From Escherichia phage K1F: DNA of 39,704 bases. The translations under genes and the position numbers were made by a program. How positions within the stretch are numbered: the stretch's first letter is position 1; the number at the start of each line of letters is the position of its first letter. The notes beneath the pieces are model-generated. The model saw only the letters and a list, made by a program, of their open reading frames with translations. It did no database searches and was not told where the DNA came from. Location: sequence record NC_007456.1; one strand, given 5' to 3'. Shown one piece after another: positions 1-39,704 of the stretch.

Positions 1-178
1 TCTCACAGTTCAAGAACCTCAAGTCTCCCCATAGGCCCTCTTTAAGTCCAGACCAAAGGCCCTACCCCAGTCTATCATAAGGTTGGACCGATGGTCAAGA
101 CGTCAGGTCAACGATAGGTCTAGGCTATGGCTTAGGGAAGGACGATAGGTGGTGACTATTGGTCTGTCTCTGAGTCTC
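1..178. repeat. Left direct terminal repeat (DTR), 178 bp, identical to 39527-39704
   Basis: Window start TCTCACAGTTCAAGAACCTC...CTGTCTCTGAGTCTC recurs exactly at the window end; typical of T7-like linear genomes. Confidence 0.95.
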
Positions 179-189
179 TATCTGTATCA

Positions 190-316
190 GACCATAGGTC
201 ACAGCCATAAGTCATAACCTCTACATCTCATAACCATAAGTCAAAACCTACAGTCTCACTAACCTACAGTCCTACAACCATAAGACACCAACACCTACAG
301 TCATAGACCTACAGTT
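190..316. repeat. Array of short direct repeats (CCTACAGT x4, CCATAAGTC-like x4) next to left DTR
   Basis: CCTACAGT at 247, 263, 294, 308; CCATA(A/G)GTC at 192, 205, 234, 278; analogous to T7 repeats flanking the terminal repeat. Confidence 0.7.
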
Positions 317-567
317 AATAGACACACAGCTATAGACTTAAGGTCAGAGACATGTTAGTCAAAGACTATATCCTCTTACACCATGAGGCCGACGATAGCT
401 CAATCAATATTATTTCGAATTACCTATTGACTATAGGTCCAGACTATGGCCTAATAGCTTCCGTCAACACGACACGGCAACAACCGGATAGTGAAGACGC
501 CTGGTCATCCCGGTTAAGTAGACAGCCTGATAAGTCATACGAACAACAGGCAGATGACAGAAAGTAG

Positions 568-597
568 TTGACAAGATGTAACGATAAGATGTAAGCT
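568..597 (+). promoter_or_regulatory. Candidate host sigma70 early promoter (TTGACA, 18-bp spacer, TAAGCT)
   Basis: Perfect -35 TTGACA at 568-573; weak -10 TAAGCT at 592-597; position matches T7 A-promoter region upstream of gene 0.3. Confidence 0.3.
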
Positions 598-784
598 GTA
601 CCACATCGAAACAACGGTGATGACCAACACTGAAATGGTCTACCTGAAGTCCTCTGACTGAAGGGAATGCTCTTTAACAATCTGGATAAACTCTTAATGT
701 GCGCCGATAGCGACTAACTACAGGGCCTTTGAGTCTACATCTGAAGGCCCTGACTGATAGTCACTAACTTAAAGGATGGACACT

Positions 785-1030
785 ATGAAACACTTAAGCA
801 CAATCACTAATCGCAATGAAGTATTCGTGAACACTAAAGGTTATGCGTGGATTCAGCTTAAAGAGATGACAGGAGCGCGTCACCGTGTGGTAGTGCGCAA
901 GGTCTCAAGCAAGCCGTTCAGCAACTACAGCGTAGATACTGTGCGTATAAACAACGAGACCTACCTGATAGACTCACAGATAACCGTGAGTCCTACAGCG
1001 GGCGTCTCAGCTCCTTATTTCGCTAACTGA
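785..1030 (+). CDS. Hypothetical early protein (82 aa; alternative start 776)
   Basis: ORF with AAGGA 9 nt upstream of ATG 785; first ORF after putative early promoter; no recognised homolog. Confidence 0.5.
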   Translation: MKHLSTITNRNEVFVNTKGYAWIQLKEMTGARHRVVVRKVSSKPFSNYSVDTVRINNETYLIDSQITVSPTAGVSAPYFAN

Positions 1031-1113
1031 GAGTGATTAACTACAGGTCGTTAGACTGCTAGCGGCCTGACTGATAGTCACTAACACATACTTAACTTTG
1101 AGAGGATATACCT

Positions 1114-1623
1114 ATGGAACGTAACGCTAACGCATACTATGAGCTGCTGGCTGCAACTGTTGAGCTGTTCAATGAGCGTATTCAGTACGACGAAATAACT
1201 GAAGGCGATGACTACAGCGATGCGCTGCATGAGGTCGTAGACGGTCAGGTTCCGCACTATTACCACGAGATTTTTACGGTGATGGCTGCTGATGGTATAG
1301 ACCACGAGTTCGAAGACTCTGGGCTGATGCCTGAGACCAAGGACGTAACGCGTATACTACAAGCTCGCATCTATGAGGCGCTGTATAACGATGTGTCTAA
1401 TAGCTCTGAGGTGGTCTGGTTTGAGGCTGAAGAGGAAGACGAAAAGGCTGAATATTGGGTAGTTGACACTAGAACAGGCGAGATAATTGAGGCAGCTGTA
1501 TCACTTTACGAGGCTATTGCATGTGCAAAAGAACTCTATGAGGAAGGTTTTCACATGCAGGTCGAAGACATCAACGATAACGTAGTGTTCGATCCTGCGG
1601 CTGCTGAGGAGGACTGCGAGTGA
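1114..1623 (+). CDS. 0.3: Ocr-like anti-restriction DNA-mimic protein (gene 0.3), 169 aa with C-terminal extension
   Basis: Strong similarity to T7 Ocr core (NERIQYDEI...[45 protein letters not shown]); highly acidic; SD GAGAGGA upstream. Confidence 0.9.
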
Positions 1624-1839
1624 TGGTAACTTATGGTCTCTGCCAGCACCACGTCACCAGCGCCCGGCTTATAGTCCAGACCGGGCGGTTAACCCATGAT
1701 GAGACTATGCGTCTCCTGAAGGTGGTCTACAAGCGCCGCAAGCGTATCCACGACAGTTTGCACGCTGAGTGATAGACGAGAGGCCGTCGACTGATAGGTG
1801 GCCTCAAAGATTATCACTTAAATTGATAGGAGTTAACTA

Positions 1840-2007
1840 ATGAAATTTACAATCATCGCACTTTACATCGCCAGCATTCTGTCATGGCTAACTGCGGTCA
1901 TAGTCGATGGGAATGCACTACGTCTTGGCTGGCTGGCAGTGGACATAATATTCTCTCCGGTAGGGATCGTGCGCGGTCTACTGATGTGGATTGGACTGGC
2001 GGGATAA
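1840..2007 (+). CDS. Small hydrophobic early protein (55 aa)
   Basis: ATG with AGGAG SD (taggagttaactaATG); two hydrophobic segments; not in ORF track (<60 aa). Confidence 0.45.
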   Translation: MKFTIIALYIASILSWLTAVIVDGNALRLGWLAVDIIFSPVGIVRGLLMWIGLAG

Positions 2008-2010
2008 TCT

Positions 2011-2208
2011 ATGAGTCTTGCACTATTGATAGCCATAGGCTATGGACTTATCGCCTACGTGCTGGTGAGAGACATCGACAAAGCGCGTAAAGTCTACAAA
2101 TTCAACTATGTACGTCTGGGCCGCTGGACTGTACGTCAACCTAACGGACGATTCATGCGCAACTTAGCGAACGTCTGGGATATAGCAACTATTGGGAGCA
2201 AACTGTAA
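2011..2208 (+). CDS. Small early protein (65 aa), N-terminal hydrophobic segment
   Basis: ORF track 2011..2208; starts 4 nt after previous ORF stop; position like T7 genes 0.4-0.6. Confidence 0.4.
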   Translation: MSLALLIAIGYGLIAYVLVRDIDKARKVYKFNYVRLGRWTVRQPNGRFMRNLANVWDIATIGSKL

Positions 2209-2288
2209 TGAAAACCGTATACATTAACAGACCATCTATCCGTTAGCAGTGTAGAGCAATACAGCGTGACGTGTTCTTACACCGCCGC

Positions 2289-2468
2289 ATGGAGGCTGAG
2301 GGCCATAAGTCCGAACTGATGTGTCTGGCGTATGGTGGACGACCGATCACTGACGATGGTAAACTTTTAGTCTCAGGCTGGAAGGCGATAGACCAACGGT
2401 CAACCATCAAGCACACGACTCACGGTGACTTCAGTCATCTTCACGCTAACCCACTGATATGCAAGTAA
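2289..2468 (+). CDS. Possible small early ORF (59 aa from ATG 2289; track gives GTG 2271)
   Basis: Open frame ending just upstream of promoter at 2474; no clear SD. Confidence 0.2.
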   Translation: MEAEGHKSELMCLAYGGRPITDDGKLLVSGWKAIDQRSTIKHTTHGDFSHLHANPLICK

Positions 2469-2473
2469 TTATG

Positions 2474-2496
2474 ACTTAACTATCACTATAGGACTC
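2474..2496 (+). promoter_or_regulatory. Phage RNAP promoter copy 1 (ACTTAACTATCACTATA|GGACTC), upstream of the RNAP gene
   Basis: Matches the 11-copy consensus; located 70 bp upstream of gene 1 start. Confidence 0.7.
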
Positions 2497-2565
2497 AAGG
2501 TCTAAGACTACAAGTGAAAGACCAAAGAGACTTTAAGTGAAAGACTAATAACAAGGACTTTAAGT

Positions 2566-5247
2566 ATGAGCGTCATCTCTATTGACAAACACGACTTCTC
2601 TGATGTGTCGAACGCCATTGAGCCGTTTAACCTGCTGGCCGACCACTACGGGCAAGACCTTGCAGTCAAACAGCTTCAGCTTGAGCATGAGGCATACACT
2701 GAAGGCGAGCGACGTTTCATCAAAAACCTTGAGCGACAGACTGAGCGCGGGGAACTGGCAGACAATCAGGTCGCCAAGCCTTTGATGCAGACTCTGGTTC
2801 CTAAGATTGCGCAAGCCGTCAAGGAGTGGCACGAAGGTCCAGACGGGAAGCTGTCAACCTCTCGTCCTAGCGTAGCGTTCACCATGTTGAGCACTGAAGA
2901 GAGGGCCGTTAAAGACCGTTCTCTACGCATCTCCTGCGAGTCTGCTGCTGTCATCATACTGAAGGTCATCCTCTCCAAGCTGGTCAAGCCTGAAGGGATA
3001 CCGATTACACCGATGGCCTCCGCGATAGGTCGCACACTTGAGGACGAAATCCGCTTCGGGCGCATCCGTGACAAGGAGAAGGAGCACTTCAAGAAGGCGA
3101 TAGCTGATAACCTGAACAAGCGAGCTGGTGCATCCTATAAGAAAGCCTACATGCAAGCGGTCGAAGCATCCATGCTGGAGCAAGGCCAACTGGAAGATGC
3201 ATGGGGGACTTGGAGTCCTACAGAGGCTGTCCACGTTGGCATCAAGATGCTTGAGATTGTCATCCAGTCAACACAACTGGTCGAGCTTAAGCGTTACGGT
3301 GCTGGCAATGCAGCGGCTGATGTCGAGATGGTCCACCTGTCAGACTTCTGGGTCAAGAAGATGGCACAACGTGGATTCAGCCTTGCGGGTATCGCACCAG
3401 TCTATCAGCCTTGCGTCGTTCCACCTAAGCCGTGGACGGGTGTCGTAGGCGGTGGTTACTGGGCCAAAGGTCGCAGACCATTACCGCTGATTCGCTTAGG
3501 CTCTAAGTCTGCGGTAGCACGTTACGAAGACGTGTACATGCCTGAAGTCTATGAAGCTGTGAACATCATTCAGAATACACCTTGGAAAGTGAACAAGAAG
3601 GTTCTGGACGTGGTGAACATGGTCGAGAAGCTGAACAACACGCCTATTGATGACATCCCTCAGATGGAACCACTGAAGCCTGAGGCTTATGCGGGTGAGA
3701 CCGAGGAGGAACTCAAGGCATGGAAGAAGGCTGCTGCTGGTATCTATCGCCGCGAGAAGGCCAGACAGTCACGCAGGTTGTCACTGAGCTTTATCGTTAA
3801 CCAAGCGAACAAGTTCTCTCAGTTCAAGGCTATATGGTTCCCGTACAACATGGACTGGCGCGGTCGCGTCTACGCTGTGCCGATGTTCAACCCTCAGGGT
3901 AACGACATGCAGAAGGGTCTCCTGACTCTGGCAGTTGGCAAGCCTATTGGTGCTGACGGTTTCAAATGGCTAAAGGTACACGGTGCAAACTGCGCGGGTG
4001 TCGATAAAGTCACCTTCGAGGAGCGCATCAAGTGGGTGGAAGACAACCACGACAACATCATGGCTGCTGCTAAAGCACCTATGGACAGCATTGAGTGGTG
4101 GGGAAAGTTAGACTCTCCGTTCTGTTTCCTCGCGTTCTGCTTCGAGTATGCTGGCGTAATGCACCATGGCCTGTCTTACTCCTGCTCGCTGCCGATAGCG
4201 TTCGATGGGTCCTGCTCTGGGATTCAGCACTTCAGCGCGATGCTTCGTGACCACATCGGTGGACATGCGGTAAACCTGACGCCTTCCGGTAAAGTCCAAG
4301 ACATCTACCGCATCGTGTCCGACCGCATTGAGGAGGAGCTTAAAGTCCTGCTGGTTAACGGCACGGACAACGAGATGGTAACTCACGAGGACAAGAAAAC
4401 TGGTGAGATTACCGAGCGTCTCAAGCTGGGGACACGAGAGCTGGCCCGTCAGTGGCTGACCTACGGTATGTCACGAAAGGTCACTAAGCGTTCGGTCATG
4501 ACTCTGGCCTACGGGTCGAAAGAGTACGGCTTCGCAGACCAAGTTTACGAGGACATCGTGATGCCAGCGATTGACTCAGGGTCTGGCGCTATGTTCACTG
4601 AACCAAGCCAAGCATCTCGCTTCATGGCTAAGATGATTTGGGAAGCTGTGAGTGTGACCGTAGTTGCTGCGGTTGACGCGATGAAATGGCTTCAGGGTGC
4701 TGCCAAGCTGCTGGCGGCTGAAGTGAAGGACAAGAAGACGGGTGAAATCCTGAAGCCTTGCCTTCCGGTACACTGGGTCACACCTGATGGGTTCCCGGTC
4801 TGGCAGGAATACCGCAAGAAGGATACTACTCGTCTGAACCTGATGTTCTTAGGGTCCTTCAACCTTCAACCTACCGTCAACAAAGGTACGAAGAAAGAGC
4901 TGGATAAGCACAAGCAGGAGTCAGGCATTAGCCCGAACTTCGTCCACTCACAAGATGGTAGCCACCTCCGCAAGACTGTAGTCCATACTCACCGCAAGTA
5001 TGGCGTGATGTCGTTCGCAGTGATTCACGATAGCTTCGGGACCATCCCGGCTGACGCTGAGTATCTGTTCCGTGGGGTCCGTGAGACTATGGTCGAGACC
5101 TACCGCGACAACGATGTGCTGCTTGACTTCTACGAGCAGTTTGAATACCAGCTTCACGAGAGCCAGCGCGATAAGTTGCCAGAGCTTCCGAAGAAAGGTA
5201 AACTGAATATCGAAGACATCTTGTCTTCAGACTTTGCATTCGCTTAA
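2566..5247 (+). CDS. 1: Single-subunit DNA-directed RNA polymerase (T7 gene 1 homolog), 893 aa
   Basis: Collinear similarity to T7 RNAP from N-terminus (KHDFSD...PFN.LADHYG) to C-terminal DFAFA; AAGGA SD. Confidence 0.97.
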   Translation: MSVISIDKHDFSDVSNAIEPFNLLADHYGQDLAVKQLQLEHEAYTEGERRFIKNLERQTERGELADNQVAKPLMQTLVPKIAQAVKEWHEGPDGKLSTSRPSVAFTMLSTEERAVKDRSLRISCESAAVIILKVILSKLVKPEGIPITPMASAIGRTLEDEIRFGRIRDKEKEHFKKAIADNLNKRAGASYKKAYMQAVEASMLEQGQLEDAWGTWSPTEAVHVGIKMLEIVIQSTQLVELKRYGAGNAAADVEMVHLSDFWVKKMAQRGFSLAGIAPVYQPCVVPPKPWTGVVGGGYWAKGRRPLPLIRLGSKSAVARYEDVYMPEVYEAVNIIQNTPWKVNKKVLDVVNMVEKLNNTPIDDIPQMEPLKPEAYAGETEEELKAWKKAAAGIYRREKARQSRRLSLSFIVNQANKFSQFKAIWFPYNMDWRGRVYAVPMFNPQGNDMQKGLLTLAVGKPIGADGFKWLKVHGANCAGVDKVTFEERIKWVEDNHDNIMAAAKAPMDSIEWWGKLDSPFCFLAFCFEYAGVMHHGLSYSCSLPIAFDGSCSGIQHFSAMLRDHIGGHAVNLTPSGKVQDIYRIVSDRIEEELKVLLVNGTDNEMVTHEDKKTGEITERLKLGTRELARQWLTYGMSRKVTKRSVMTLAYGSKEYGFADQVYEDIVMPAIDSGSGAMFTEPSQASRFMAKMIWEAVSVTVVAAVDAMKWLQGAAKLLAAEVKDKKTGEILKPCLPVHWVTPDGFPVWQEYRKKDTTRLNLMFLGSFNLQPTVNKGTKKELDKHKQESGISPNFVHSQDGSHLRKTVVHTHRKYGVMSFAVIHDSFGTIPADAEYLFRGVRETMVETYRDNDVLLDFYEQFEYQLHESQRDKLPELPKKGKLNIEDILSSDFAFA

Positions 5248-5261
5248 CAGGAGAGAGAGCT

Positions 5262-5477
5262 ATGAAATTTGCACACAAGCATACTGGCGTTAATGGTGGG
5301 ACTCAAATCGTGACCGTAACAGAACACAACGGCAAGGGTCTGGTGAAGACCACGGTCATCCCTACCGAGATGTCCAAGCAGCTTAACATCCCGTTCAAGA
5401 CTCTTGTAGATCTGGTCGAGTCCAGCCACGAGAAGTACCTGAAGGACGCAGTGTCCAAGCTGGAGCAGGCCAAATGA
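5262..5477 (+). CDS. Hypothetical protein (71 aa)
   Basis: ORF with strong SD (aacaggagagagagctATG) immediately after gene 1. Confidence 0.55.
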   Translation: MKFAHKHTGVNGGTQIVTVTEHNGKGLVKTTVIPTEMSKQLNIPFKTLVDLVESSHEKYLKDAVSKLEQAK

Positions 5478-5551
5478 CAGACCTACAGTTACTGGCCTTG
5501 TGGCTAGGAGCACTCGCAGTATTCACTTTAATCCAACGCAGAAGAGGTTAA

Positions 5552-5574
5552 CCTAAACTATCACTATAGGATTA
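5552..5574 (+). promoter_or_regulatory. Phage RNAP promoter copy 2 (CCTAAACTATCACTATA|GGATTA)
   Basis: Consensus match; position equals T7 phi1.1 promoters downstream of gene 1. Confidence 0.75.
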
Positions 5575-5618
5575 GACTCAAGGTCATGACTCAAAGTCGT
5601 GGCCTTCATGATTAACCC
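5573..5618 (+). promoter_or_regulatory. Conserved ~45-bp element A (TAGACTCAAGGTCAT...GTGGCCTTCATGATTAACCC), RNase III-site-like
   Basis: One of three near-identical elements (5573, 12860, 36453) at positions matching T7 R1.1, R4.7, R18.5. Confidence 0.4.
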
Positions 5619-5647
5619 TGAATAAACACTACTGGAGATTTAACCGT

Positions 5648-5828
5648 ATGTATCAGAATACTATCAACTTCGAGCGCATCCGTGAACGTCAGCAGACTTG
5701 AAGGTTACATTCCTAAGGGCCGCAAGCTGAACAAGACTAAACGTGGAGGTGGTATCAAGGGTGCTTTCCGTAACGCTGAGGGCAAAGACTCTATGGTCAA
5801 CCAAGAGAAATACTTCGTAGGAGCATAA
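5648..5828 (+). other. Gene 1.1-like coding region split across two frames (17-codon ORF 5648-5701, then +1-frame basic segment KGRKLNKTKR... ending 5828)
   Basis: ATG 5648 has GGAG SD and NFE motif; downstream frame has GRKLNKTKR motif recalled from T7 gp1.1 but only a GTG start (5682). Confidence 0.4.
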
Positions 5829-5832
5829 CGCT

Positions 5833-6096
5833 ATGGGCCGACTTTATAGTGGCAACCTCAACGCTTTCAGAGCAGCGTGTGACAGGCTCTATCAGTTAGA
5901 CTTCGCTGTCATATCTCAAGAGTTTCAAGACCATGTGTCACGCCAAGAGTGCATGAAACTCAGGGTAGAGGACCGAGCTGGTAACATCTTCGCGCTTAAG
6001 ACCTTCGAACACCGCGATGAAAACGTACTGTACAACACTGCAACAGGCTTCCTTAACTGTCTCGCTAACCAACTCGACACATGGAGCAAATCATAA
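5833..6096 (+). CDS. 1.2: gp1.2-like protein (T7 dGTPase inhibitor homolog), 87 aa
   Basis: N-terminus MGRLYSGNLNAF... closely matches T7 gp1.2. Confidence 0.88.
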   Translation: MGRLYSGNLNAFRAACDRLYQLDFAVISQEFQDHVSRQECMKLRVEDRAGNIFALKTFEHRDENVLYNTATGFLNCLANQLDTWSKS

Positions 6097-7118
6097 TGAC
6101 AACTATTAAAACTAACCCGCACCGCGCTGTAGATTACTCTGAGTCTGGCGTTAAGAAGGCACTGGCAGCAGCCGGGTCGCTGGAAGCTGAAGTGAAGTAT
6201 GACGGTGTGCGCCTGAATCTCCCGGTCCTGCGTGAAGGTGAGACCTACTGGCTGAGCCGTGAGTCTAAACCTCTTCCAGCCTTGGAGTGGATGAACTCTG
6301 AGTTAGGGAATGCGTGGACCCAAGCTGACTGGCGTTGGTTCCTACGTCAAGCTGGATACGAAGGCGTGGGTCTGATGATTGACGGAGAGGTCATGGTCAA
6401 AGGCGTTGACTTCAACACATCATCGGGTCTCATCCGAACGAAGTGGCTGAAGCCTAGCAACGAAGAGTTCGCTGAATGTTATCCGGGACGAGGCAATAAG
6501 GTCCCGTTCTGGGTAGCCCGGTCAAGACTTAAGGTTGTTGTATACGGTGTCGTAGACATGACAACCATTGCTGACCCGAAAGCCGAAGGTCCTATCCATA
6601 GCGTAACCCGCCTGAAGGCCGAAGCTATCGTCCCTCTCCTTCAGAAATACTTCCCGGAAATCGACTGGGTTCTCTCTGAGAGTCATACAGTGTTCAACCT
6701 TGAGTCTCTTCGTGATTTGTACGAGGAGAAGCGAGCAGATGGACATGAAGGTCTGGTAGTCAAGGACCCACTGGGAAAATACAAGCGTGGTAAGAAGTCT
6801 GGTATGTGGAAGATGAAGCCAAGTGAAGAGGCAGATGGTCACGTTGTTCGCCCGGTGTGGGGAACAGAAGGTCTAGCCAACGAAGGTATGGTCATCGGCT
6901 TTGACGTTATGCTCGAGAACGGGATGGAGGTCTCCGCAACTAACATTAGTCGCGCCCTTATGTCCGAGTTCACAGAGAATGTTAAGTCAGACCCTGACTA
7001 CTACAAGGGGTGGGCTTGCCAGATTACCTACATGGAGGAGACACCAGATGGCTCATTGCGACATCCCTCGTTCGACCAGTGGCGTGGGACGGAAGATAAC
7101 CCGACCATTAAGAGCTAA
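6096..7118 (+). CDS. 1.3: ATP-dependent DNA ligase (T7 gene 1.3 homolog)
   Basis: IKTNP...EVKYDGVR (adenylation Lys motif) ...DGEVMVKGVDFNT...EGLVVKDP...WKMKP...WACQITYMEETPDGSLRHPSF; start at ATG 6096 (track 6081) overlapping 1.2 stop. Confidence 0.93.
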   Translation: MTTIKTNPHRAVDYSESGVKKALAAAGSLEAEVKYDGVRLNLPVLREGETYWLSRESKPLPALEWMNSELGNAWTQADWRWFLRQAGYEGVGLMIDGEVMVKGVDFNTSSGLIRTKWLKPSNEEFAECYPGRGNKVPFWVARSRLKVVVYGVVDMTTIADPKAEGPIHSVTRLKAEAIVPLLQKYFPEIDWVLSESHTVFNLESLRDLYEEKRADGHEGLVVKDPLGKYKRGKKSGMWKMKPSEEADGHVVRPVWGTEGLANEGMVIGFDVMLENGMEVSATNISRALMSEFTENVKSDPDYYKGWACQITYMEETPDGSLRHPSFDQWRGTEDNPTIKS

Positions 7119-7127
7119 CTAAATGTC

Positions 7128-7160
7128 AACCCAGTGGTCTTATGACTGCTGGGTTTCTTT
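7128..7160 (+). terminator. Rho-independent terminator (early terminator TE analog)
   Basis: 12-bp stem AACCCAGTGGTC/GACTGCTGGGTT with TTAT loop followed by TCTTT; directly after ligase as in T7. Confidence 0.7.
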
Positions 7161-7182
7161 GCGTCTGGGCCACCAGCTAGAC

Positions 7183-7205
7183 CCTAAGCTATCACTATAG
7201 GACAA
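7183..7205 (+). promoter_or_regulatory. Phage RNAP promoter copy 3 (CCTAAGCTATCACTATA|GGACAA)
   Basis: Consensus match with G at -12. Confidence 0.7.
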
Positions 7206-7229
7206 CCATCAACAACCTAAGGAGACTCT

Positions 7230-7487
7230 ATGTCTAAGAACTTAATGTTCAACCGTTATTCTAATACCTTCCACCTGTCCAACAACCCGTTCGCTTGCAT
7301 TAAGCGCAACGAGAAACTTGGCTACTTCGGGAAGGCCGTTAAGCTGTCACCTACAGTCTATGCTCTGATTACTCCTGGAAAAGCTGAAGAGGCTCGCCAG
7401 AAGCGTGAGACAAATGTGCCCGTGGTCTACACTAAGTGGCCTCGCGTTCGGCTGTTTGTTGAGGTCGTAAAGGAGGTGTTCTTATGA
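7230..7487 (+). CDS. Hypothetical protein (85 aa), gene 1.4-1.6 position
   Basis: ORF with AAGGAG SD downstream of promoter 7183. Confidence 0.6.
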   Translation: MSKNLMFNRYSNTFHLSNNPFACIKRNEKLGYFGKAVKLSPTVYALITPGKAEEARQKRETNVPVVYTKWPRVRLFVEVVKEVFL

Positions 7488-7930
7488 CTACTTATGATAA
7501 TATGATTATCAAGCTAATCGATATGAACGATGGTAATCCAGACCATTTATATAACTGTTCCTTCAATTGTGCTGGAGTTCCTTGTAACATCTGCCCCGCT
7601 AAGGATGATGACGATATGACCTTAGGTGAAATCCGAGCGATGGACCCGCGTAAATCTCATCTGAATAAACTTGAGGTAACTCCTACAGATGACCAGCCTT
7701 CCACTGAATCAATCGAAGGTGTCACTAAGCCTTCCCATTACATGCTGTTCGACGACATTGAGGCTATCGAAGTGATTGCCCGTTCAATGACTCGTGAGCA
7801 GTTCAAAGGGTACTGCTTAGGGAACATCCTTAAGTACCGCCTACGCGCTGGTAAGAAAGTCAGAACTTGCTTACTTAGAGAAAGCCAGGGCGAAAGTTGG
7901 ATTCTATGGGGAACTGTACGAGAAACATAA
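7484..7930 (+). CDS. gp1.7-like protein (DUF3310-like motifs); C-terminus appears to continue in +1 frame to 7952
   Basis: Motifs KPSHY...IEAIEV...FKGYCLGNILKYRLRAGKK; after AAGAAAG (7853-7859) the +1 frame reads SELAYLEKARAKVGFYGELYEKHKDKCYDA*. Confidence 0.6.
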   Translation: MTTYDNMIIKLIDMNDGNPDHLYNCSFNCAGVPCNICPAKDDDDMTLGEIRAMDPRKSHLNKLEVTPTDDQPSTESIEGVTKPSHYMLFDDIEAIEVIARSMTREQFKGYCLGNILKYRLRAGKKVRTCLLRESQGESWILWGTVRET

Positions 7931-7941
7931 GGATAAGTGCT

Positions 7942-8169
7942 ATGACGCGTGAAGAACTTCAAGCTGCATCGGCGAAGCGTAGAGCGCAAAGATTTTATCG
8001 TGCATACAAGGCGCTGCGTAAGGGTATGTCGATGTTCAAATTAGGACACAGGGAGTATTGTGATAGCGACCTCCTACCGTTTGCTTATAAGAAGACACCT
8101 AGTCTGATTATCAAGGTAGAGGAGTATGAATATTCTGATGACTGTGTTATGGTGAACCGCTATGCTTAA
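7942..8169 (+). CDS. Hypothetical basic protein (75 aa)
   Basis: ATG 7942 with AAGGATAAG SD; in frame with track ORF 7897..8169. Confidence 0.5.
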   Translation: MTREELQAASAKRRAQRFYRAYKALRKGMSMFKLGHREYCDSDLLPFAYKKTPSLIIKVEEYEYSDDCVMVNRYA

Positions 8170-8266
8170 CGATGTTCTGTACTTCGGCTTAATTTGCGCT
8201 GGAGTAGGCGCGTTACTTCGCTTAATGTATTGGGAGATAGAGGTGGAATATGGTAAAACCAAGTGA
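8162..8266 (+). CDS. Possible small hydrophobic ORF (34 aa)
   Basis: ATG overlapping previous stop; weak SD. Confidence 0.25.
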   Translation: MLNDVLYFGLICAGVGALLRLMYWEIEVEYGKTK

Positions 8267-8348
8267 GTGGTGCCGTGAGATGTATGAGAAGACGCTCAAC
8301 CCGGACTACATCACGTTATACAACCAATGGAAGGAGCGCGGTTTATGA
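8250..8348 (+). CDS. Possible small ORF (32 aa)
   Basis: GAGGTGG SD; stop overlaps gene 2 start (ATGA). Confidence 0.35.
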
Positions 8349-8503
8349 CTGAGGTTGAGAAGAAATACATCGTGGAGCTTGAGGGTCGCGTTCAGTCCTT
8401 CGAGGTTCCGTTGTATGCAAAGTCTCTTGAAGAGGCTACCCTGAAGTCCCAAGAGTATGAGGACGCTGGGTTTGTGGTCGGACGGATTCGTCCTGAGACC
8501 TAA
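8345..8503 (+). CDS. 2: Gp2-like inhibitor of host RNA polymerase (52 aa)
   Basis: ...[17 protein letters not shown]...GFVVGRIRP resembles T7 Gp2 (FEVPIYAETLDEA...GFEVTRVRP); AAGGAG SD; not in ORF track (<60 aa). Confidence 0.75.
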
Positions 8504-8521
8504 ACTATCACTGTAGGACAG
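8499..8521 (+). promoter_or_regulatory. Phage RNAP promoter copy 4, variant (CCTAAACTATCACTGTA|GGACAG; G at -3)
   Basis: Consensus match except -3; overlaps gene 2 stop; upstream of SSB. Confidence 0.6.
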
Positions 8522-8560
8522 ACGTCCAGTTCGTAACTTTAAAATAGGAGATTTACACCG

Positions 8561-8614
8561 ATGGCTAAAGAGCAACTGAAGACTTTCACCACTCCGGTAG
8601 CTGGCATAGTTTGA
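8561..8614 (+). other. 17-codon leader ORF in frame with SSB gene, ended by TGA at 8612
   Basis: ATG 8561 has strong SD (AGGAGA, 10-nt spacing); same frame as ATG 8624; MAKEQLKTF resembles T7 gp2.5 N-terminus MAKKIFTS. Confidence 0.4.
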
Positions 8615-8623
8615 GCCTTACGC

Positions 8624-9259
8624 ATGGCTGACAAAGCAGACACCAAGTTTAACGAGCGTGGTGAGCATAAGGTTAACCTGACTTTCAGTCTGGATGACCC
8701 GAAGGTCCGTAAGATGATTGATGTCTTACAGAAGATTCACGACGATGCGTATGCGAAAGCACTTGCAGACCACGAGAAGAACCCACCTCAGGTTCAGCGT
8801 GGCAAGAAGCCTATTGAACCACGAGAAGGCGACATGCCGTGGATTGAGAATGGTGACGGTACTGTTACCATGAAGTTTAAATGCTTCGCGTCTTACCTGA
8901 AAGACGGCAAGTCCGAGCCTATCGTATTACGGTTCTACGACACCGATGCTAAACTCATCCGTGACGTCCCGAATATTGGCGCTGGCTCAAAGCTGAAGGT
9001 CAAGTTTAAAGTCCTGCCGTTTAAGTGGAACGCTGCGACTGGTGCAAGCGTTAAGCTCCAACTTGAGTCCTGCCTTCTGGTAGAACTGAAGGAGTGGAAA
9101 GGTGATGGTGCTGGTGGCGATGGTGGCTGGGGTGACGATGAAGACCTCGGTACTGGCTACAAAGCGTCAACCGATGGTGACTTCGGGTCTGATGACTTCG
9201 GTGACGATGGTTCCGAAGGTGGTGACGACTCCAACTCTGGTGGCGATTACGACTTCTAA
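8624..9259 (+). CDS. 2.5: Single-stranded DNA-binding protein (T7 gp2.5 homolog) with acidic C-terminal tail ending DYDF
   Basis: KVNLT...HEKNPP...RGKKPIEPREGDMPW...NGDGT...KFKCFASY...VKLQLESCLLVEL and acidic tail ...GGDYDF as in T7 (...DGDF). Confidence 0.9.
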   Translation: MADKADTKFNERGEHKVNLTFSLDDPKVRKMIDVLQKIHDDAYAKALADHEKNPPQVQRGKKPIEPREGDMPWIENGDGTVTMKFKCFASYLKDGKSEPIVLRFYDTDAKLIRDVPNIGAGSKLKVKFKVLPFKWNAATGASVKLQLESCLLVELKEWKGDGAGGDGGWGDDEDLGTGYKASTDGDFGSDDFGDDGSEGGDDSNSGGDYDF

Positions 9260-10654: not shown

Positions 10655-10870
10655 ATGATTAAACTTATCGAATTTCTTGGTCGTCTGGTGGTGCGTGGTT
10701 ATCGTCGTGCTTCGGTACTGGAACGAAAGGTAGAAAAGAAGACTGCTGATGGTGCGGCTGATGCTGCTGCTCTGGCTGACAAGCTGACCATCGCGTCACT
10801 GGAAGCTGGCATGAAGGCTCGTCAGGCTGATACCAAAGCTGACCAGTTGGAGCAGTTCTTCAAAGACTAA
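10655..10870 (+). CDS. Hypothetical protein (71 aa), Ala-rich, likely helical
   Basis: ORF with GGGAGA SD after lysozyme gene. Confidence 0.55.
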   Translation: MIKLIEFLGRLVVRGYRRASVLERKVEKKTADGAADAAALADKLTIASLEAGMKARQADTKADQLEQFFKD

Positions 10871-10888
10871 ACTATCACCTTAGGGATG
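10866..10888 (+). promoter_or_regulatory. Degenerate phage promoter-like site (AACTATCACCTTA|GGGA; mismatches at -4 and -3)
   Basis: Shares the -13 to -5 block with the consensus; just upstream of gene 4. Confidence 0.35.
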
Positions 10889-17176: not shown

Positions 17177-17199
17177 ACTAAACTATCACTATAGGGACT
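17177..17199 (+). promoter_or_regulatory. Phage RNAP promoter copy 6 (ACTAAACTATCACTATA|GGGACT)
   Basis: Consensus match; T7 phi6.5 position. Confidence 0.75.
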
Positions 17200-17260
17200 T
17201 TAGGGCCTAAGATATGACTATAAGATAGACTTTAGTCTTAACTTAAAGAGGAGATTCAAG

Positions 17261-17533
17261 ATGGCTATTAATGCTATTGAAAACGTTGTTAAGCAGTTAC
17301 AGGAAGAAAGACTTGATGTCCCGAACATCTCCCAGTCTGCTATCCAGTTCCTGCACGTATTGTTCAACGCAAGCTACGCTGAGAAGATGGGAGCTATTAG
17401 TCTCCTCAAGCAGCAGGGCTACAGCGATGCGTTCATTGCCGGATTCATCAAGGGTCTCCAGTATTGCTCTGACACTCTCGACTCTGCGATTGCTATGCGT
17501 CGTGAGCTGAAAGATACCGTTCAGTTCGATTAA
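17261..17533 (+). CDS. gp6.5-like hypothetical protein (90 aa)
   Basis: ORF with GAGGAG SD; position matches T7 gene 6.5. Confidence 0.6.
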   Translation: MAINAIENVVKQLQEERLDVPNISQSAIQFLHVLFNASYAEKMGAISLLKQQGYSDAFIAGFIKGLQYCSDTLDSAIAMRRELKDTVQFD

Positions 17534-18433: not shown

Positions 18434-20002
18434 ATGGCTGAACGTGAAGGGTTCGCTGCTGAAGGCGCGAAGGCAGTTTATGATAGACTGAAGAACGGTA
18501 GACAGCCATATGAGACACGCGCTCAGAACTGTGCTGCTGTCACTATCCCGTCACTGTTTCCTAAGGAGTCAGACAACTCATCTACTGAGTATACCACTCC
18601 GTGGCAAGCTGTAGGTGCTCGCTGCTTGAACAACTTGGCTGCAAAGCTGATGCTGGCGTTATTCCCGCAGTCACCATGGATGCGACTGACAGTCTCCGAA
18701 TATGAGGCCAAGACCTTGAGTCAGGACTCAGAGGCTGCTGCTCGTGTTGACGAAGGGCTTGCTATGGTCGAGCGTGTGTTGATGGCCTACATGGAGACTA
18801 ACAGTTTCCGTGTGCCATTGTTCGAAGCTCTGAAGCAGCTTATCGTCTCCGGTAACTGTCTGCTTTACATTCCAGAGCCTGAACAGGGTACTTACAGTCC
18901 TATGCGAATGTACCGCTTAGTGTCCTACGTTGTTCAACGTGATGCTTTCGGTAATATCTTGCAGATTGTGACTATCGACAAGGTAGCGTTTAGTGCTCTA
19001 CCGGAAGACGTTAAGTCCCAACTCAACGCAGACGACTATGAGCCTGACACAGAGCTGGAAGTATATACGCACATCTACCGTCAAGACGACGAGTACCTGC
19101 GTTACGAGGAAGTGGAAGGCATTGAGGTGACAGGGACCGATGGTTCCTACCCGCTGACTGCGTGTCCATACATCCCGGTACGAATGGTTCGACTGGATGG
19201 TGAAGACTATGGTCGTTCCTACTGCGAGGAGTATCTGGGAGACCTGAACTCGCTGGAGACGATTACAGAAGCTATCACCAAAATGGCTAAGGTAGCCTCC
19301 AAGGTGGTGGGCCTCGTTAACCCGAACGGTATCACGCAACCTCGTCGTCTGAACAAGGCGGCTACAGGTGAGTTCGTTGCCGGTCGCGTTGAGGACATCA
19401 ACTTCCTGCAACTGACTAAGGGTCAGGACTTTACGATTGCCAAGTCGGTGGCTGATGCTATCGAGCAACGTTTAGGCTGGGCCTTCCTTCTTAATAGTGC
19501 TGTTCAGCGTAATGCCGAGCGAGTCACTGCTGAAGAGATTCGTTATGTTGCTGGAGAACTGGAGGCGACCTTAGGTGGCGTGTACTCAGTACAATCCCAA
19601 GAGCTTCAGTTACCTATCGTCCGTGTGCTGATGAACCAACTTCAGTCTGCTGGCATGATTCCTGACCTTCCGAAAGAAGCGGTAGAGCCTACTGTCTCCA
19701 CTGGTCTGGAAGCGTTAGGTCGTGGTCAGGACTTGGAGAAGCTAACTCAGGCGGTTAACATGATGACTGGTCTTCAGCCGCTATCTCAGGACCCGGACAT
19801 CAACTTGCCGACCCTTAAGCTACGACTCCTGAACGCTCTGGGTATCGACACCGCTGGCCTACTCCTGACGCAAGACGAGAAGATTCAGCGCATGGCTGAG
19901 CAGTCGTCTCAACAGGCAGTTGTCCAAGGTGCTAGTGCTGCTGGTGCTAACATGGGTGCTGCTGTAGGTCAGGGAGCTGGTGAGGACATGGCTCAAGCCT
20001 AA
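18434..20002 (+). CDS. 8: Portal (head-to-tail connector) protein (T7 gene 8 homolog)
   Basis: Near-collinear identity with T7 gp8 (YETRAQNCA...IPSLFPK...PWQAVGAR.LNNLA.KLMLALFP...YRL.SYVVQRDAFGN...); AAGGAGGTGA SD. Confidence 0.95.
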   Translation: MAEREGFAAEGAKAVYDRLKNGRQPYETRAQNCAAVTIPSLFPKESDNSSTEYTTPWQAVGARCLNNLAAKLMLALFPQSPWMRLTVSEYEAKTLSQDSEAAARVDEGLAMVERVLMAYMETNSFRVPLFEALKQLIVSGNCLLYIPEPEQGTYSPMRMYRLVSYVVQRDAFGNILQIVTIDKVAFSALPEDVKSQLNADDYEPDTELEVYTHIYRQDDEYLRYEEVEGIEVTGTDGSYPLTACPYIPVRMVRLDGEDYGRSYCEEYLGDLNSLETITEAITKMAKVASKVVGLVNPNGITQPRRLNKAATGEFVAGRVEDINFLQLTKGQDFTIAKSVADAIEQRLGWAFLLNSAVQRNAERVTAEEIRYVAGELEATLGGVYSVQSQELQLPIVRVLMNQLQSAGMIPDLPKEAVEPTVSTGLEALGRGQDLEKLTQAVNMMTGLQPLSQDPDINLPTLKLRLLNALGIDTAGLLLTQDEKIQRMAEQSSQQAVVQGASAAGANMGAAVGQGAGEDMAQA

Positions 20003-20020
20003 ACTATCACTATAGGAACA
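19998..20020 (+). promoter_or_regulatory. Phage RNAP promoter copy 7 (CCTAAACTATCACTATA|GGAACA)
   Basis: Consensus match; overlaps portal stop; upstream of scaffold gene. Confidence 0.75.
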
Positions 20021-20110
20021 ACACAACTTGAGTGAGTGAACGCATAGCCAGCCGTAACGGGAGGGCAGGTTGTTGTGTTTCCTATTAACGACTTAAAGGA
20101 GAATGACTTA

Positions 20111-20996: not shown

Positions 20997-21019
20997 ACTA
21001 AACTATCACTATAGGGAGA
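20997..21019 (+). promoter_or_regulatory. Phage RNAP promoter copy 8 (ACTAAACTATCACTATA|GGGAGA), phi10 analog
   Basis: Only copy with full GGGAGA at +1 to +6; sits before major capsid gene. Confidence 0.85.
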
Positions 21020-21135
21020 CCAAGAGATGCTCTGAAATGAAGAGACTCAATGTTTCCCTATTACTTCAGTCCATACGGATTGGGCGTACAGTAAGTAATA
21101 AACTTTATCTTTCAATTGAATAGGAGAATTAGCAT

Positions 21136-22179
21136 ATGGCAAACGTTCCGGGTCAGAAAATTGGTACAGACCAAGGTAAAGGCAAATCCAGCTCCGACGC
21201 TCTTGCGTTGTTCCTGAAGGTATTTGCCGGTGAAGTCCTGACCGCATTCACTCGCCGCTCTGTAACTGCTGACAAGCATATTGTCCGTACCATTCAGAAC
21301 GGTAAGTCTGCTCAGTTCCCGGTCATGGGTCGCACCTCTGGTGTGTATCTGGCTCCGGGTGAGCGACTGTCAGATAAGCGTAAAGGTATCAAACATACCG
21401 AGAAAGTGATTACCATTGATGGTCTGCTGACTGCCGATGTGATGATTTTCGACATTGAAGACGCTATGAACCACTATGACGTGGCTGGCGAGTATTCCAA
21501 CCAGTTGGGTGAAGCTCTGGCTATCGCTGCCGATGGTGCTGTTCTGGCTGAAATGGCCATCCTGTGTAACCTCCCGGCTGCATCCAACGAGAACATTGCT
21601 GGTCTAGGCACTGCGTCCGTACTTGAAGTAGGTAAGAAAGCCGACCTCGACACCCCGGCTAAACTTGGTGAAGCAATCATCGGTCAACTGACCATTGCTC
21701 GTGCGAAGCTGACCTCTAACTACGTTCCTGCTGGCGACCGTTACTTCTACACCACGCCTGACAACTACTCTGCAATCCTCGCGGCTCTGATGCCGAACGC
21801 TGCTAACTATGCTGCGCTGATTGATCCAGAGACTGGTAACATCCGTAACGTGATGGGCTTCGTTGTTGTTGAAGTTCCGCATCTGGTACAGGGTGGTGCT
21901 GGTGAGACTCGTGGTGACGATGGCATCACTATCGCTTCCGGTCAGAAACACGCGTTCCCGGCAACTGCCTCTAGTGACGTTAAAGTTACTATGGACAACG
22001 TTGTGGGTCTGTTCTCTCACCGTTCTGCTGTGGGTACTGTGAAGCTGCGTGATTTGGCGCTGGAACGTGACCGTGACGTAGATGCTCAGGGTGACCTGAT
22101 TGTCGGTAAATACGCTATGGGCCACGGTGGTCTGCGTCCAGAAGCAGCAGGCGCACTGGTTTTCAGCCCAGCGGAGTAA
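21136..22179 (+). CDS. 10: Major capsid protein 10A (T7 gene 10 homolog), 347 aa
   Basis: Long identity blocks with T7 gp10A (ALFLKVF.GEVLTAF.R.SVT...KHTEKVITIDGLLTADV...AMNHYDV...AILAALMPNAANYAALIDPE...KYAMGHGGLRPEAAGA). Confidence 0.97.
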   Translation: MANVPGQKIGTDQGKGKSSSDALALFLKVFAGEVLTAFTRRSVTADKHIVRTIQNGKSAQFPVMGRTSGVYLAPGERLSDKRKGIKHTEKVITIDGLLTADVMIFDIEDAMNHYDVAGEYSNQLGEALAIAADGAVLAEMAILCNLPAASNENIAGLGTASVLEVGKKADLDTPAKLGEAIIGQLTIARAKLTSNYVPAGDRYFYTTPDNYSAILAALMPNAANYAALIDPETGNIRNVMGFVVVEVPHLVQGGAGETRGDDGITIASGQKHAFPATASSDVKVTMDNVVGLFSHRSAVGTVKLRDLALERDRDVDAQGDLIVGKYAMGHGGLRPEAAGALVFSPAE

Positions 22180-22310
22180 GCACTTTTAGCCAACCTAACG
22201 TCGCTACAGTAGCGGCTGCACCTGAAGAGGAGACTCTAACTCCTCAACAGAAAGCTGCGCGTACTCGTGCTGCGAACAGGGCCGATAAACTGGCTGAGTC
22301 CAACAACTAA
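21136..22310 (+). CDS. 10: Minor capsid protein 10B by predicted -1 frameshift at GGTTTTC (22158-22164), about 391 aa
   Basis: Heptamer G GTT TTC in 0 frame near 10A end; -1 frame stays open 48 codons (QPSGVSTFSQPNVATVAAAPEEETLTPQQKAARTRAANRADKLAESNN) to TAA 22308-22310, just before Tphi. Confidence 0.6.
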
Positions 22311-22313
22311 TTG

Positions 22314-22352
22314 AAACCCCTTGGGTGCCTTCGGGTGCTTGAGGGGTTTTTG
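22314..22352 (+). terminator. Tphi-like terminator (AAACCCCTTGGGTGCCTTCGGGTGCTTGAGGGGTTTTTG)
   Basis: GC-rich hairpin with U-tract; near-identical in form and position to T7 Tphi. Confidence 0.85.
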
Positions 22353-25320: not shown

Positions 25321-25343
25321 CCTTAACTATCACTATAGGGACT
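25321..25343 (+). promoter_or_regulatory. Phage RNAP promoter copy 9 (CCTTAACTATCACTATA|GGGACT)
   Basis: Consensus match; upstream of gene 13. Confidence 0.75.
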
Positions 25344-31700: not shown

Positions 31701-32601
31701 GCGTAAGTTCGATGACCGCTGGCTGAAGACCGCTGGTATCTCTGACGAGCAGTGGAAGGGCATTAAGTCCCTCATCCGTGAGTCAGTGACGCGTGGTCCA
31801 GACGGGAAGTACACCATCAAGGATAAGAAGGCGTTCAGTCAGGACCCAAGGGCTATGGACCTGTGGCGTATGGGTGACACCATCGCTGATGAAACGTTAC
31901 TCCGTCCTCATAAGCTGTCCAACATGGACGCCAAGGCTTATGGTCCTATCGCTAAGACTGTCCTTCAGTTTAAGAACTTCGTCATCAAGTCCATCAATGG
32001 GCGAACCATGCGTACCTTCTATAACGCCACGAAGAACAACCGAGCGATTGACGCTGCACTATCGACCGTGATGTCTATGGGTCTGGCTGGTATCTACTAC
32101 ATGGCTCAGGCGCACGTCAAGGCTTATGCTATGCAGGATGGTCGAGACCGTGACTACCTTAAGCAAGCTCTGGACCCGACGATGATTGGTTATGCGGCTC
32201 TGTCCCGTAGTTCACATCTGGGTGGCCCACTTGGGGTAGCTAACATTCTAGGTGGCATCGCTGGGTATGAGGACACTAAGATGCTCCGTTCGTCTATCCT
32301 ACCTCGTTCGCCTACAGAGAAGCCTGAACGTGCCATCACGTTTGGTGCAGCTACAAGTGACCCTGTGATGAATGTTGTTGGTAACTTCTTGGAGCAGGTT
32401 CCAGCTTTCGGATATGCTGCTAACGTTGGCGTTTCTGCTTACAACTTGGCTGGCTACCTCAAGGCTGATACTCGTGTCAACGAGCGTGACTACATGACCG
32501 GGATGTATAATACGTTCCGTGAACTGGTTCCGAACGACCCCATTACCCAGAAGCTGTTGCTTGGAATGTTTGAGGAGCAAGGCATCCACATCAAGGACTA
32601 A
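28714..32601 (+). CDS. 16: Internal virion protein D (T7 gene 16 homolog), 1295 aa; N-terminal ~140 aa divergent from T7
   Basis: Collinear with T7 gp16 from about residue 190 (...FGFG.A.EAE...RLEARETARN...DLVRSPTGMQSGASGK...NPAMFG...GTYVPHVY...); N-terminus starts MATRGIRNNNPGNIR. Confidence 0.93.
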   Translation: MATRGIRNNNPGNIRVSKDQWEGMTGDDGAFVTFDSPESGVRALGKNLLSYGRQGYDSIEKIINRWAPPNENDTQAYIDSVVAATGIPATQSLDLSNPDTLSALAQAISFHETGSRYNPEVYQQGVARALNGISPKTPPVSANVFDALTEGLKAKPKVALGENLPTAAGLNIEGQAPEAPNESFGEMFYKATGETMQEREDRSTWFGFGTATEAEVKNSMVGVAIRAGQTEDSLDVIGDVFNPTRWNNHKWSREELDQIRNAGVLPQYYGVITGGSPQNLTELINLALENQKFDQEKAKAGTGAQLAAGVIGAGVDPLTYVPIAGQVGKGGKLVNKMFTVAAQSGALAGASEIARTSVAGGDAHVAEAIMGGALFGGGMTAIGDAIGKALGKSTNEFAGPATRLEARETARNVDGQDLSRMPIREGEETFSHQGVKFADVPNEPGSVRLEDGSILIGENPLNPKTRQVFDEVIEPERAAAGVNLGGLTEIGLKLLRSENPEIRGVATDLVRSPTGMQSGASGKIGTTASDVFERLRAVDHRFYNDIDDAVTEALKDPYFQTAFWRDSGAFRQDIYQRVSMAIEDGSGNLKAELTPGELKVYDLLKNQFDAKREMMENPAMFGRPDAQSIFPGSRFKGTYVPHVYSKQMKELYIKELGSPEALQEAIKKSWLTSYASRPEVKKRVDEALLEADPTLTPEGLAAAVDKYANDKAYGISHTEQFERSSVMEENINGLVGLENNSFLEARNLFDSDMSIVLPNGQTFSVNNLREWDMDKIVPAYNRRINGDIAIMAGTGKTTKDMKDLVETMMNKAGDDGKLKGEVSTLRDTLKILTGRARRDGADDAAFATVMRTMTDLSFFAKNAYMGVQNLTEIGGMLARGNVRAMLHGVPIFRDLAFRNKKVGASEIKDLHNVIFGKELDDSIRPSKQDVIDRLRSYSDLGRGTATALGTAKYYTGELAVRSPFTKVLNGTTNYLLDAGRQGFLSDIVEHSLTGSKRKFDDRWLKTAGISDEQWKGIKSLIRESVTRGPDGKYTIKDKKAFSQDPRAMDLWRMGDTIADETLLRPHKLSNMDAKAYGPIAKTVLQFKNFVIKSINGRTMRTFYNATKNNRAIDAALSTVMSMGLAGIYYMAQAHVKAYAMQDGRDRDYLKQALDPTMIGYAALSRSSHLGGPLGVANILGGIAGYEDTKMLRSSILPRSPTEKPERAITFGAATSDPVMNVVGNFLEQVPAFGYAANVGVSAYNLAGYLKADTRVNERDYMTGMYNTFRELVPNDPITQKLLLGMFEEQGIHIKD

Positions 32602-32619
32602 ACTATCACTATAGGAAAC
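32597..32619 (+). promoter_or_regulatory. Phage RNAP promoter copy 10 (ACTAAACTATCACTATA|GGAAAC)
   Basis: Consensus match; overlaps gene 16 stop; upstream of tail spike gene. Confidence 0.75.
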
Positions 32620-38851: not shown

Positions 38852-38874
38852 ACTTAACTATCACTATAGGAAGA
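38852..38874 (+). promoter_or_regulatory. Phage RNAP promoter copy 11 (ACTTAACTATCACTATA|GGAAGA), phiOR analog
   Basis: Consensus match downstream of gene 19, as T7 phiOR. Confidence 0.75.
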
Positions 38875-39526: not shown

Positions 39527-39704
39527 TCTCACAGTTCAAGAACCTCAAGTCTCCCCATAGGCCCTCTTTAAGTCCAGACCAAAGGCCCTACCCCAGTCTA
39601 TCATAAGGTTGGACCGATGGTCAAGACGTCAGGTCAACGATAGGTCTAGGCTATGGCTTAGGGAAGGACGATAGGTGGTGACTATTGGTCTGTCTCTGAG
39701 TCTC
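39527..39704. repeat. Right direct terminal repeat (DTR), 178 bp
   Basis: Exact copy of 1-178. Confidence 0.95.

Follow-up and report, generated by a model that had tools for sequence, protein, structure and literature searches.

Positions 20,997–21,019 of the stretch of DNA analysed here (39,704 nt, hereafter the window) read ACTAAACTATCACTATAGGGAGA and lie 5' of a major capsid gene. A first-pass annotation had taken this site for one of eleven phage promoters whose -12 to -8 block differs from that of T7, and had proposed that they are served by an RNA polymerase with a specificity of its own. The site therefore raises two questions: whether the repeats are indeed promoters of a phage-encoded polymerase, and on which bases and residues a specificity distinct from that of T7 would depend. 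The first 20 kb of the window show 99.9% identity to the K1F record AM084414/NC_007636 (Kayfunavirus, Studiervirinae) and about 93–95% identity to many other Kayfunavirus genomes; the deposited K1F record contains annotated genes and no promoters. AAGAACCTCAAGTCTCCCCATAGGCCCTCT is found near both ends (1–60 and 39530–39590, with PWM matches at 34 and 39560), which is consistent with direct terminal repeats of the T7 kind and hence with the window being a complete linear genome.

Identification of the promoter set

The search with the pattern ACTAAACTATCACTATAGG, in which up to 3 mismatches were allowed, returned 11 matches, none with more than 2 mismatches and every one on the + strand (starts: 2474, 5552, 7183, 8499, 10866, 17177, 19998, 20997, 25321, 32597 and 38852), against a chance expectation of 0.03; none of 100 dinucleotide-preserving shuffles reached 11. 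A position weight matrix (PWM) derived from these sites (span -22 to +8) and scanned over both strands recovered exactly the same eleven (32–41 bits), with the next-best match at 16.3 bits (+1 = 17223) and nothing above 6.2 bits on the - strand. An element of about 23 bp (-17 to +6) is repeated through the genome far above chance, as T7-like promoters are. The sites are the following.

2474–2496, + strand: phi1, +1 = 2491, ACTTAACTATCACTATA followed by GGACTC; 75 nt 5' of the RNA polymerase gene, identical in phages Vec13, CLB_P1, yong1 and ST16
5552–5574, + strand: phi1.15, +1 = 5569, CCTAAACTATCACTATA followed by GGATTA; positional counterpart of T7 phi1.1A/B
7183–7205, + strand: phi1.6, +1 = 7200, CCTAAGCTATCACTATA followed by GGACAA; G at -12
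8499–8521, + strand: phi2.5, +1 = 8516, variant with G at -3; overlaps the end of gene 2, 45 nt 5' of gene 2.5
10866–10888, + strand: phi4, +1 = 10883, variant with C at -4 and T at -3; 5' of the primase/helicase gene 4A
17177–17199, + strand: phi6.5, +1 = 17194, ACTAAACTATCACTATA followed by GGGACT
19998–20020, + strand: phi9, +1 = 20015, same as the published PK1F part
20997–21019, + strand: phi10, +1 = 21014; 5' of the major capsid gene 10A, the sole GGGAGA site
25321–25343, + strand: phi13, +1 = 25338, found by pattern match and PWM
32597–32619, + strand: phi17, +1 = 32614; 5' of the endosialidase tailspike gene 17
38852–38874, + strand: phiOR, +1 = 38869; after gene 19, positional counterpart of T7 phiOR

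All of them are located between genes or reach into the final codons of the gene 5' of them, and the next gene (1, 1.15, 1.6, 2.5, 4A, 6.5, 9, 10A, 13, 17 and 19.4, respectively) starts 30–184 nt downstream. Ten occupy map positions equivalent to those of T7 promoters (1.1, 1.6, 2.5, 3.8/4, 6.5, 9, 10, 13, 17 and OR), and the eleventh, phi1, lies directly 5' of the polymerase gene; both the sense orientation and the parallel with the T7 map are those of T7-like promoters. The placement of phi1 before gene 1 suggests that synthesis of the polymerase is under positive feedback. The equivalent position in T7 carries no phage promoter, while the full-consensus phi1 is conserved in Vec13, CLB_P1, yong1 and ST16.

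Positions -16, -15, -13, -11 to -5, -2, -1, +1 and +2 are invariant across the eleven sites. The -7 to +2 core, CACTATAGG, is identical in K1F and T7, as had been stated, and all sites start with GGA or GGGA; the full GGGAGA at +1 to +6 is likewise confined to the capsid promoter. The upstream consensus, presented at first as fixed, varies at -17 (A or C, 6:5) and at -14 (A or T, 8:3). The -12 to -8 block is ACTAT, and not the CGACT of T7, in 10 of the 11 sites; the exception is site 7183 (GCTAT, with G in place of A at -12), and -11 to -8 do not vary. A further difference, overlooked by the first-pass annotation, is found at -17 to -13, where K1F has (A/C)CT(A/T)A, with C-16 and T-15 invariant, and T7 has TAATA.

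The polymerase and its recognition loops

A T7-type single-subunit RNA polymerase, as expected for promoters of this kind, is encoded in the same genome, and two of its loops are relevant to promoter recognition.

2566–5247, + strand: gene 1, T7-type single-subunit RNA polymerase, 893 aa; full-length match to the T7 RNAP structures 1aro and 1cez (1276 bits)
4825–4878, + strand: codons of the specificity loop, K1F residues 754–771, corresponding to T7 744–761; TTRLNLMFLGSFNLQPTV in K1F, QTRLNLMFLGQFRLQPTI in T7
2842–2874, + strand: counterpart of the T7 AT-rich recognition loop; DGKLSTSRPSV in K1F, KAKRGKRPT in T7 (93–101)

Inspection of the specificity loop, which had been recommended as a check, revealed the substitutions Q754S, R756N and I761V with respect to T7 (T7 numbering) and retention of R746, N748 and Q758, i.e. 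the combination that defines the K1F specificity class. The AT-rich recognition loop, whose remodelling had gone unnoticed, is two residues longer than in T7 and has three basic residues fewer.

By homology to T7, the segment from -4 to +2 (TATA followed by GG) would be the region of melting and initiation, with transcription from the first G. The β-hairpin of the specificity loop is expected to read -12 to -5 in the major groove, and the N-terminal loop would read -17 to -13, an assignment that we presume from knowledge of the T7 structure. As to individual contacts, the retained R746 would fit C at -7 and the retained Q758 T at -8, while R756N would fit the changes at -9 and -10. The three substitutions R756N, Q754S and I761V re-target the hairpin from CGACT to ACTAT at -12 to -8, so that the K1F and T7 polymerases largely ignore each other's promoters. 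Positions -11 and -10 differ from T7 although N748 is unchanged, which indicates that the three key residues do not correspond to bases in a simple one-to-one manner; the change at -11 may depend on 754S/761V or on an altered geometry of the hairpin. A second specificity element is suggested by C-16 and T-15, which do not vary over the 11 sites in any of 5 genomes (K1F and four relatives), in combination with the altered N-terminal loop.

Specificity relative to T7

For comparison of the two promoter types, separate matrices were derived from the 17 promoters annotated in T7 and from the 11 K1F sites. With the matrix of their own type, T7 promoters reach +26 to +40 bits and K1F sites +30 to +38 bits; with the matrix of the other type, the values are -18 to -2 bits for T7 promoters and -31 to -3 bits for K1F sites; scans of the K1F and T7 genomes revealed no sites of the other type above 10 bits. 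With neither CGACT at -12 to -8 nor TAATA at -17 to -13, the K1F sites are not T7 promoters proper.

Experiments on this specificity class have been published. Temme et al. 2012 transferred the K1F hairpin to T7 RNAP and the K1F bases -12 to -7 to a T7 promoter and obtained 17-fold induction from the pair; their set of four polymerases, in which T7(K1F)/PK1F and T7/PT7 are included, was reported to be highly orthogonal (PMC3458549). The graft, by which T7 RNAP is switched from CGACT to ACTAT at -12 to -8, is 754S/756N/761V (PMC11880802, Table 2), exactly the loop differences found in the K1F polymerase. According to the same study, residues 748, 756 and 758 and bases -12 to -8 are the dominant covarying positions across T7-like phages, residue 756 being coupled to -9 and -10, and K1F is among the nine specificity clusters that are named; the orthogonality of the grafted set is modest (value 8 in Table 2; relatively high non-cognate activity in the text). 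In Halomonas and E. coli, the native K1F RNAP with promoter gacatggctcaagCCTAAACTATCACTATAGG is employed for orthogonal expression, and the PK1F sequence in the supplement, gacatggctcaagcctaaactatcactatagg (PMC12218169), is K1F site 19998 plus its 13 upstream bases. In the related phage Ro45lw, promoter ACTTAACTATCACTATAGGGACT was tested in vitro and its start mapped to the first G, with a minimal promoter ACTTAACTATCACTATAGGGA spanning -17 to +4 (+1 = G; PMC12272871), and a 2026 description of another Kayfunavirus lists CTWAACTATCACTATAGG repeats as putative promoters (PMC13298934). For K1F itself no transcription start sites were found in the literature covered. The proposal that the phage has its own RNAP specificity is borne out by the full-length T7-type polymerase with S/N/V at 754/756/761, by the lack of cross-scoring and by the published orthogonal pairs; the sequence evidence and the experiments together support it and make it already known.

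Conservation in related phages

Four related Kayfunavirus genomes, those of Vec13, CLB_P1, Hafnia phage yong1 and Salmonella phage ST16, were scanned with the K1F matrix, and each contains the same eleven sites at orthologous positions. The block from -17 to +2 is 99.3% identical (830/836, 44 orthologous comparisons) vs 78% for the ungapped flanks, and -12 to -8 is invariant at 4 of 5 positions over the 11 sites in 5 genomes. A promoter is in several instances kept although one flank has been completely replaced, which places promoters at mosaic junctions, and they may therefore serve as short shared homologies for recombination. Flanks at such junctions are 5509–5551, 7140–7182, 20021–20074 and 21028–21073; in relatives the conserved 19-mer is bordered on one side by wholly unlike sequence, for example 5' of phi1.15 (in yong1) and 3' of phi9 and phi10.

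The K1F-type hairpin TTRLNL(M/L)FLGSFNLQPTV is present in every genome that has the K1F promoter, among five full genomes and fifteen IMG/VR loci that include the RNAP gene, whereas the hairpin of the IMG/VR locus L117 is a different one, QARLKLTFLGQANVFMTY, and that locus uses the promoter ATTAGGTAGCACTATAGG instead. A scan of IMG/VR with AACTATCACTATAGG found mainly contigs of about 40 kb, on each of which there were up to 9 matches, along with isolated single matches, and added nothing beyond this linkage of loop and promoter. L117 belongs to another T7-like phage, whose own promoter occurs six times, and the reverse strand of this locus (137–215) bears a single K1F-type core, AAGATAACTATCACTATAGG, 57 nt 3' of the leftmost promoter; as this core lacks the K1F block at -17 to -13, it could be a chance occurrence or a relic of recombination. 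ST16 (locus L005) possesses what looks like a genuine additional promoter, ACTAAGCTATCACTGTA followed by GGATAG (+1 = 21329, - strand, 28 bits), located 5' of the DNA polymerase gene 5 in the position of T7 phi4.7, where K1F has no site.

Alternative explanations

The eleven repeats are almost certainly the middle and late promoters of K1F, read by its own T7-type polymerase, the product of gene 1. Hot spots of recombination would likewise be expected at mosaic breakpoints, where the repeats lie when related genomes are compared, and one could imagine signals for recombination, packaging or RNA processing that merely resemble the T7 core. Such an identity is scarcely credible, given that the core is the same as in T7 promoters, that every site points in the sense direction and their order along the genome follows the map of T7 promoters, that the phi9 copy drives expression with K1F RNAP (PMC12218169) and that a near-identical 21-mer is the mapped promoter of Ro45lw RNAP (PMC12272871); the breakpoints are compatible with promoters acting as short shared homologies. 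Alternatively, the difference at -12 to -8 could be neutral, with T7- and K1F-type polymerases recognizing each other's promoters efficiently, as the -7 to +2 core common to both phages and the limited orthogonality and relatively high non-cognate activity of the grafted sets (PMC11880802) might be taken to indicate. We regard this as very unlikely, in view of the orthogonality of T7(K1F)/PK1F to T7/PT7 reported by Temme et al. (PMC3458549), the invariance of four of the five bases in all five genomes, the failure of the two matrices to cross-score, and the dominant covariation of 748/756/758 with -12 to -8, in which K1F forms one of the nine clusters (PMC11880802).

A different doubt concerns only phi2.5 and phi4, which the first-pass annotation had suspected of being weak or non-functional. 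The former indeed has G at -3, as described (CACTGTA); for the latter, the reported CTTA at -5 to -2 has to be corrected to C at -4 and T at -3, i.e. CCTTA at -5 to -1 (CACCTTA). Their changes fall within the TATA melting region and their scores with the K1F matrix are the lowest of the set (32.3 and 29.9 bits, respectively, vs 33–38 bits), which would suit decayed, non-functional relics. However, the variant bases are kept exactly in all four relatives (Vec13, CLB_P1, yong1 and ST16) while nearby flanking bases differ, and G at -3 recurs in phi1.6 of yong1 and in the extra ST16 promoter 5' of gene 5, which makes it a recurrent, tolerated state; moreover, T7 phi2.5 (T at -1, A at +1), phi3.8 (A at -2) and other class II promoters also deviate within -5 to +1, and both K1F variants lie 45–56 nt 5' of essential replication genes. 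Because of the conservation in four relatives and the recurrence of G at -3, decay to non-function is improbable. Judged from their sequences, phi2.5 and phi4 look like promoters that are maintained rather than decayed and are probably weaker promoters for replication genes, so that of the original suspicion the weaker activity remains plausible and the loss of function does not.

Terminator, a rejected twelfth site and other elements

The scans and folding predictions also revealed a candidate terminator in the gap between genes 10 and 11.

22313–22350, + strand: Tphi-like terminator, hairpin and U-run, AAACCCCUUGGGUGCCUUCGGGUGCUUGAGGGGUUUUUG (-26.2 kcal/mol, z = -3.1), predicted to end the phi9 and phi10 transcripts

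Gene 10A contains a slippery GGTTTTC, and the -1 frame continues uninterrupted for about 50 codons beyond the stop of 10A (22177–22179), up to the Tphi-like terminator (window positions about 22157–22310). This looks like a T7-style 10A/10B frameshift product, unannotated in AM084414.

The next-best PWM match, a twelfth site at 17206–17228 (+1 = 17223; CCTAAGATATGACTATA followed by AGATAG, 14–16 bits), was rejected. Situated 29 nt 3' of the start of phi6.5, it has the same sequence in all five genomes, but only because the whole phi6.5 leader is conserved; with mismatches at -11, -7 and +1 it is probably not a promoter. Folding of the phi6.5 leader (17194–17265) yielded no significant structure (z = +1.0). 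Consensus scans of positions 1–9000 for sigma-70 promoters and terminators gave fewer matches than shuffled sequences.

Significance

With the window being the K1F genome and its promoters known, the finding is correct but ordinary. The promoters and the specificity loop of K1F have been known since 2005–2012 and are standard parts for orthogonal transcription, and as a discovery the present result carries little weight. Three small refinements remain: the variant sites are conserved and not decayed, the -17 to -13 block differs from that of T7, and a conserved promoter fronts the polymerase gene. Taken further, these observations would point to an unexploited determinant formed by -17 to -13 and the N-terminal loop, and to a graded hierarchy of promoters with conserved variants before replication genes and feedback through phi1, in which we infer the relative strengths of the eleven sites; we put this forward tentatively, as a possibility that is open to serious doubt. 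If true, the second determinant and the hierarchy would refine the K1F transcription programme without constituting a new kind of system.

Comparison with known systems

The K1F specificity class is established in synthetic biology through the work of Temme et al. 2012 and Segall-Shapiro et al. 2014 and through the Halomonas K1F system. From the PK1F class the present set differs in nothing of substance: the genome is the same (99.9%), as are ACTAT and 754S/756N/761V. The engineered PK1F of Temme et al. has K1F bases at -12 to -7 in a T7 background, whereas the native sites have (A/C)CT(A/T)A at -17 to -13. The Ro45lw promoter ACTTAACTATCACTATAGGGACT equals -17 to -1 of K1F sites 2474 and 38852; Ro45lw is a different species of the same genus, Kayfunavirus, and the experiments were done on Ro45lw and not on K1F.

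The T7 class II/III promoters (TAATACGACTCACTATAGGGAGA) are alike in the 23-bp element, the -7 to +2 core, the G start and the sense orientation, and T7 also shares 10 of the 11 map positions, the Tphi-like terminator after gene 10 and a homologous polymerase. The two phages differ at -12 to -9 (CGAC in T7 vs ACTA in K1F), at -17 to -13 (TAATA vs (A/C)CT(A/T)A) and in the number of promoters (17 annotated vs 11): K1F lacks counterparts of T7 phiOL, phi1.3, phi4c, phi4.3 and phi4.7 and has an extra promoter just 5' of gene 1. Over 23 bp, the six class III promoters of T7 do not differ from one another, whereas the late promoters of K1F vary at -17, -14 and +3 to +6.

Phage T3, with the promoter AATTAACCCTCACTAAAGGGAGA, represents another natural re-targeting of the same hairpin. 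Its block, ACCCT (PMC11880802, Table 2), agrees with that of K1F in having A at -12 and C at -11. The solutions differ in that T3 combines N748D with CC at -10/-9, whereas K1F keeps N748 and combines R756N with TA at -10/-9.
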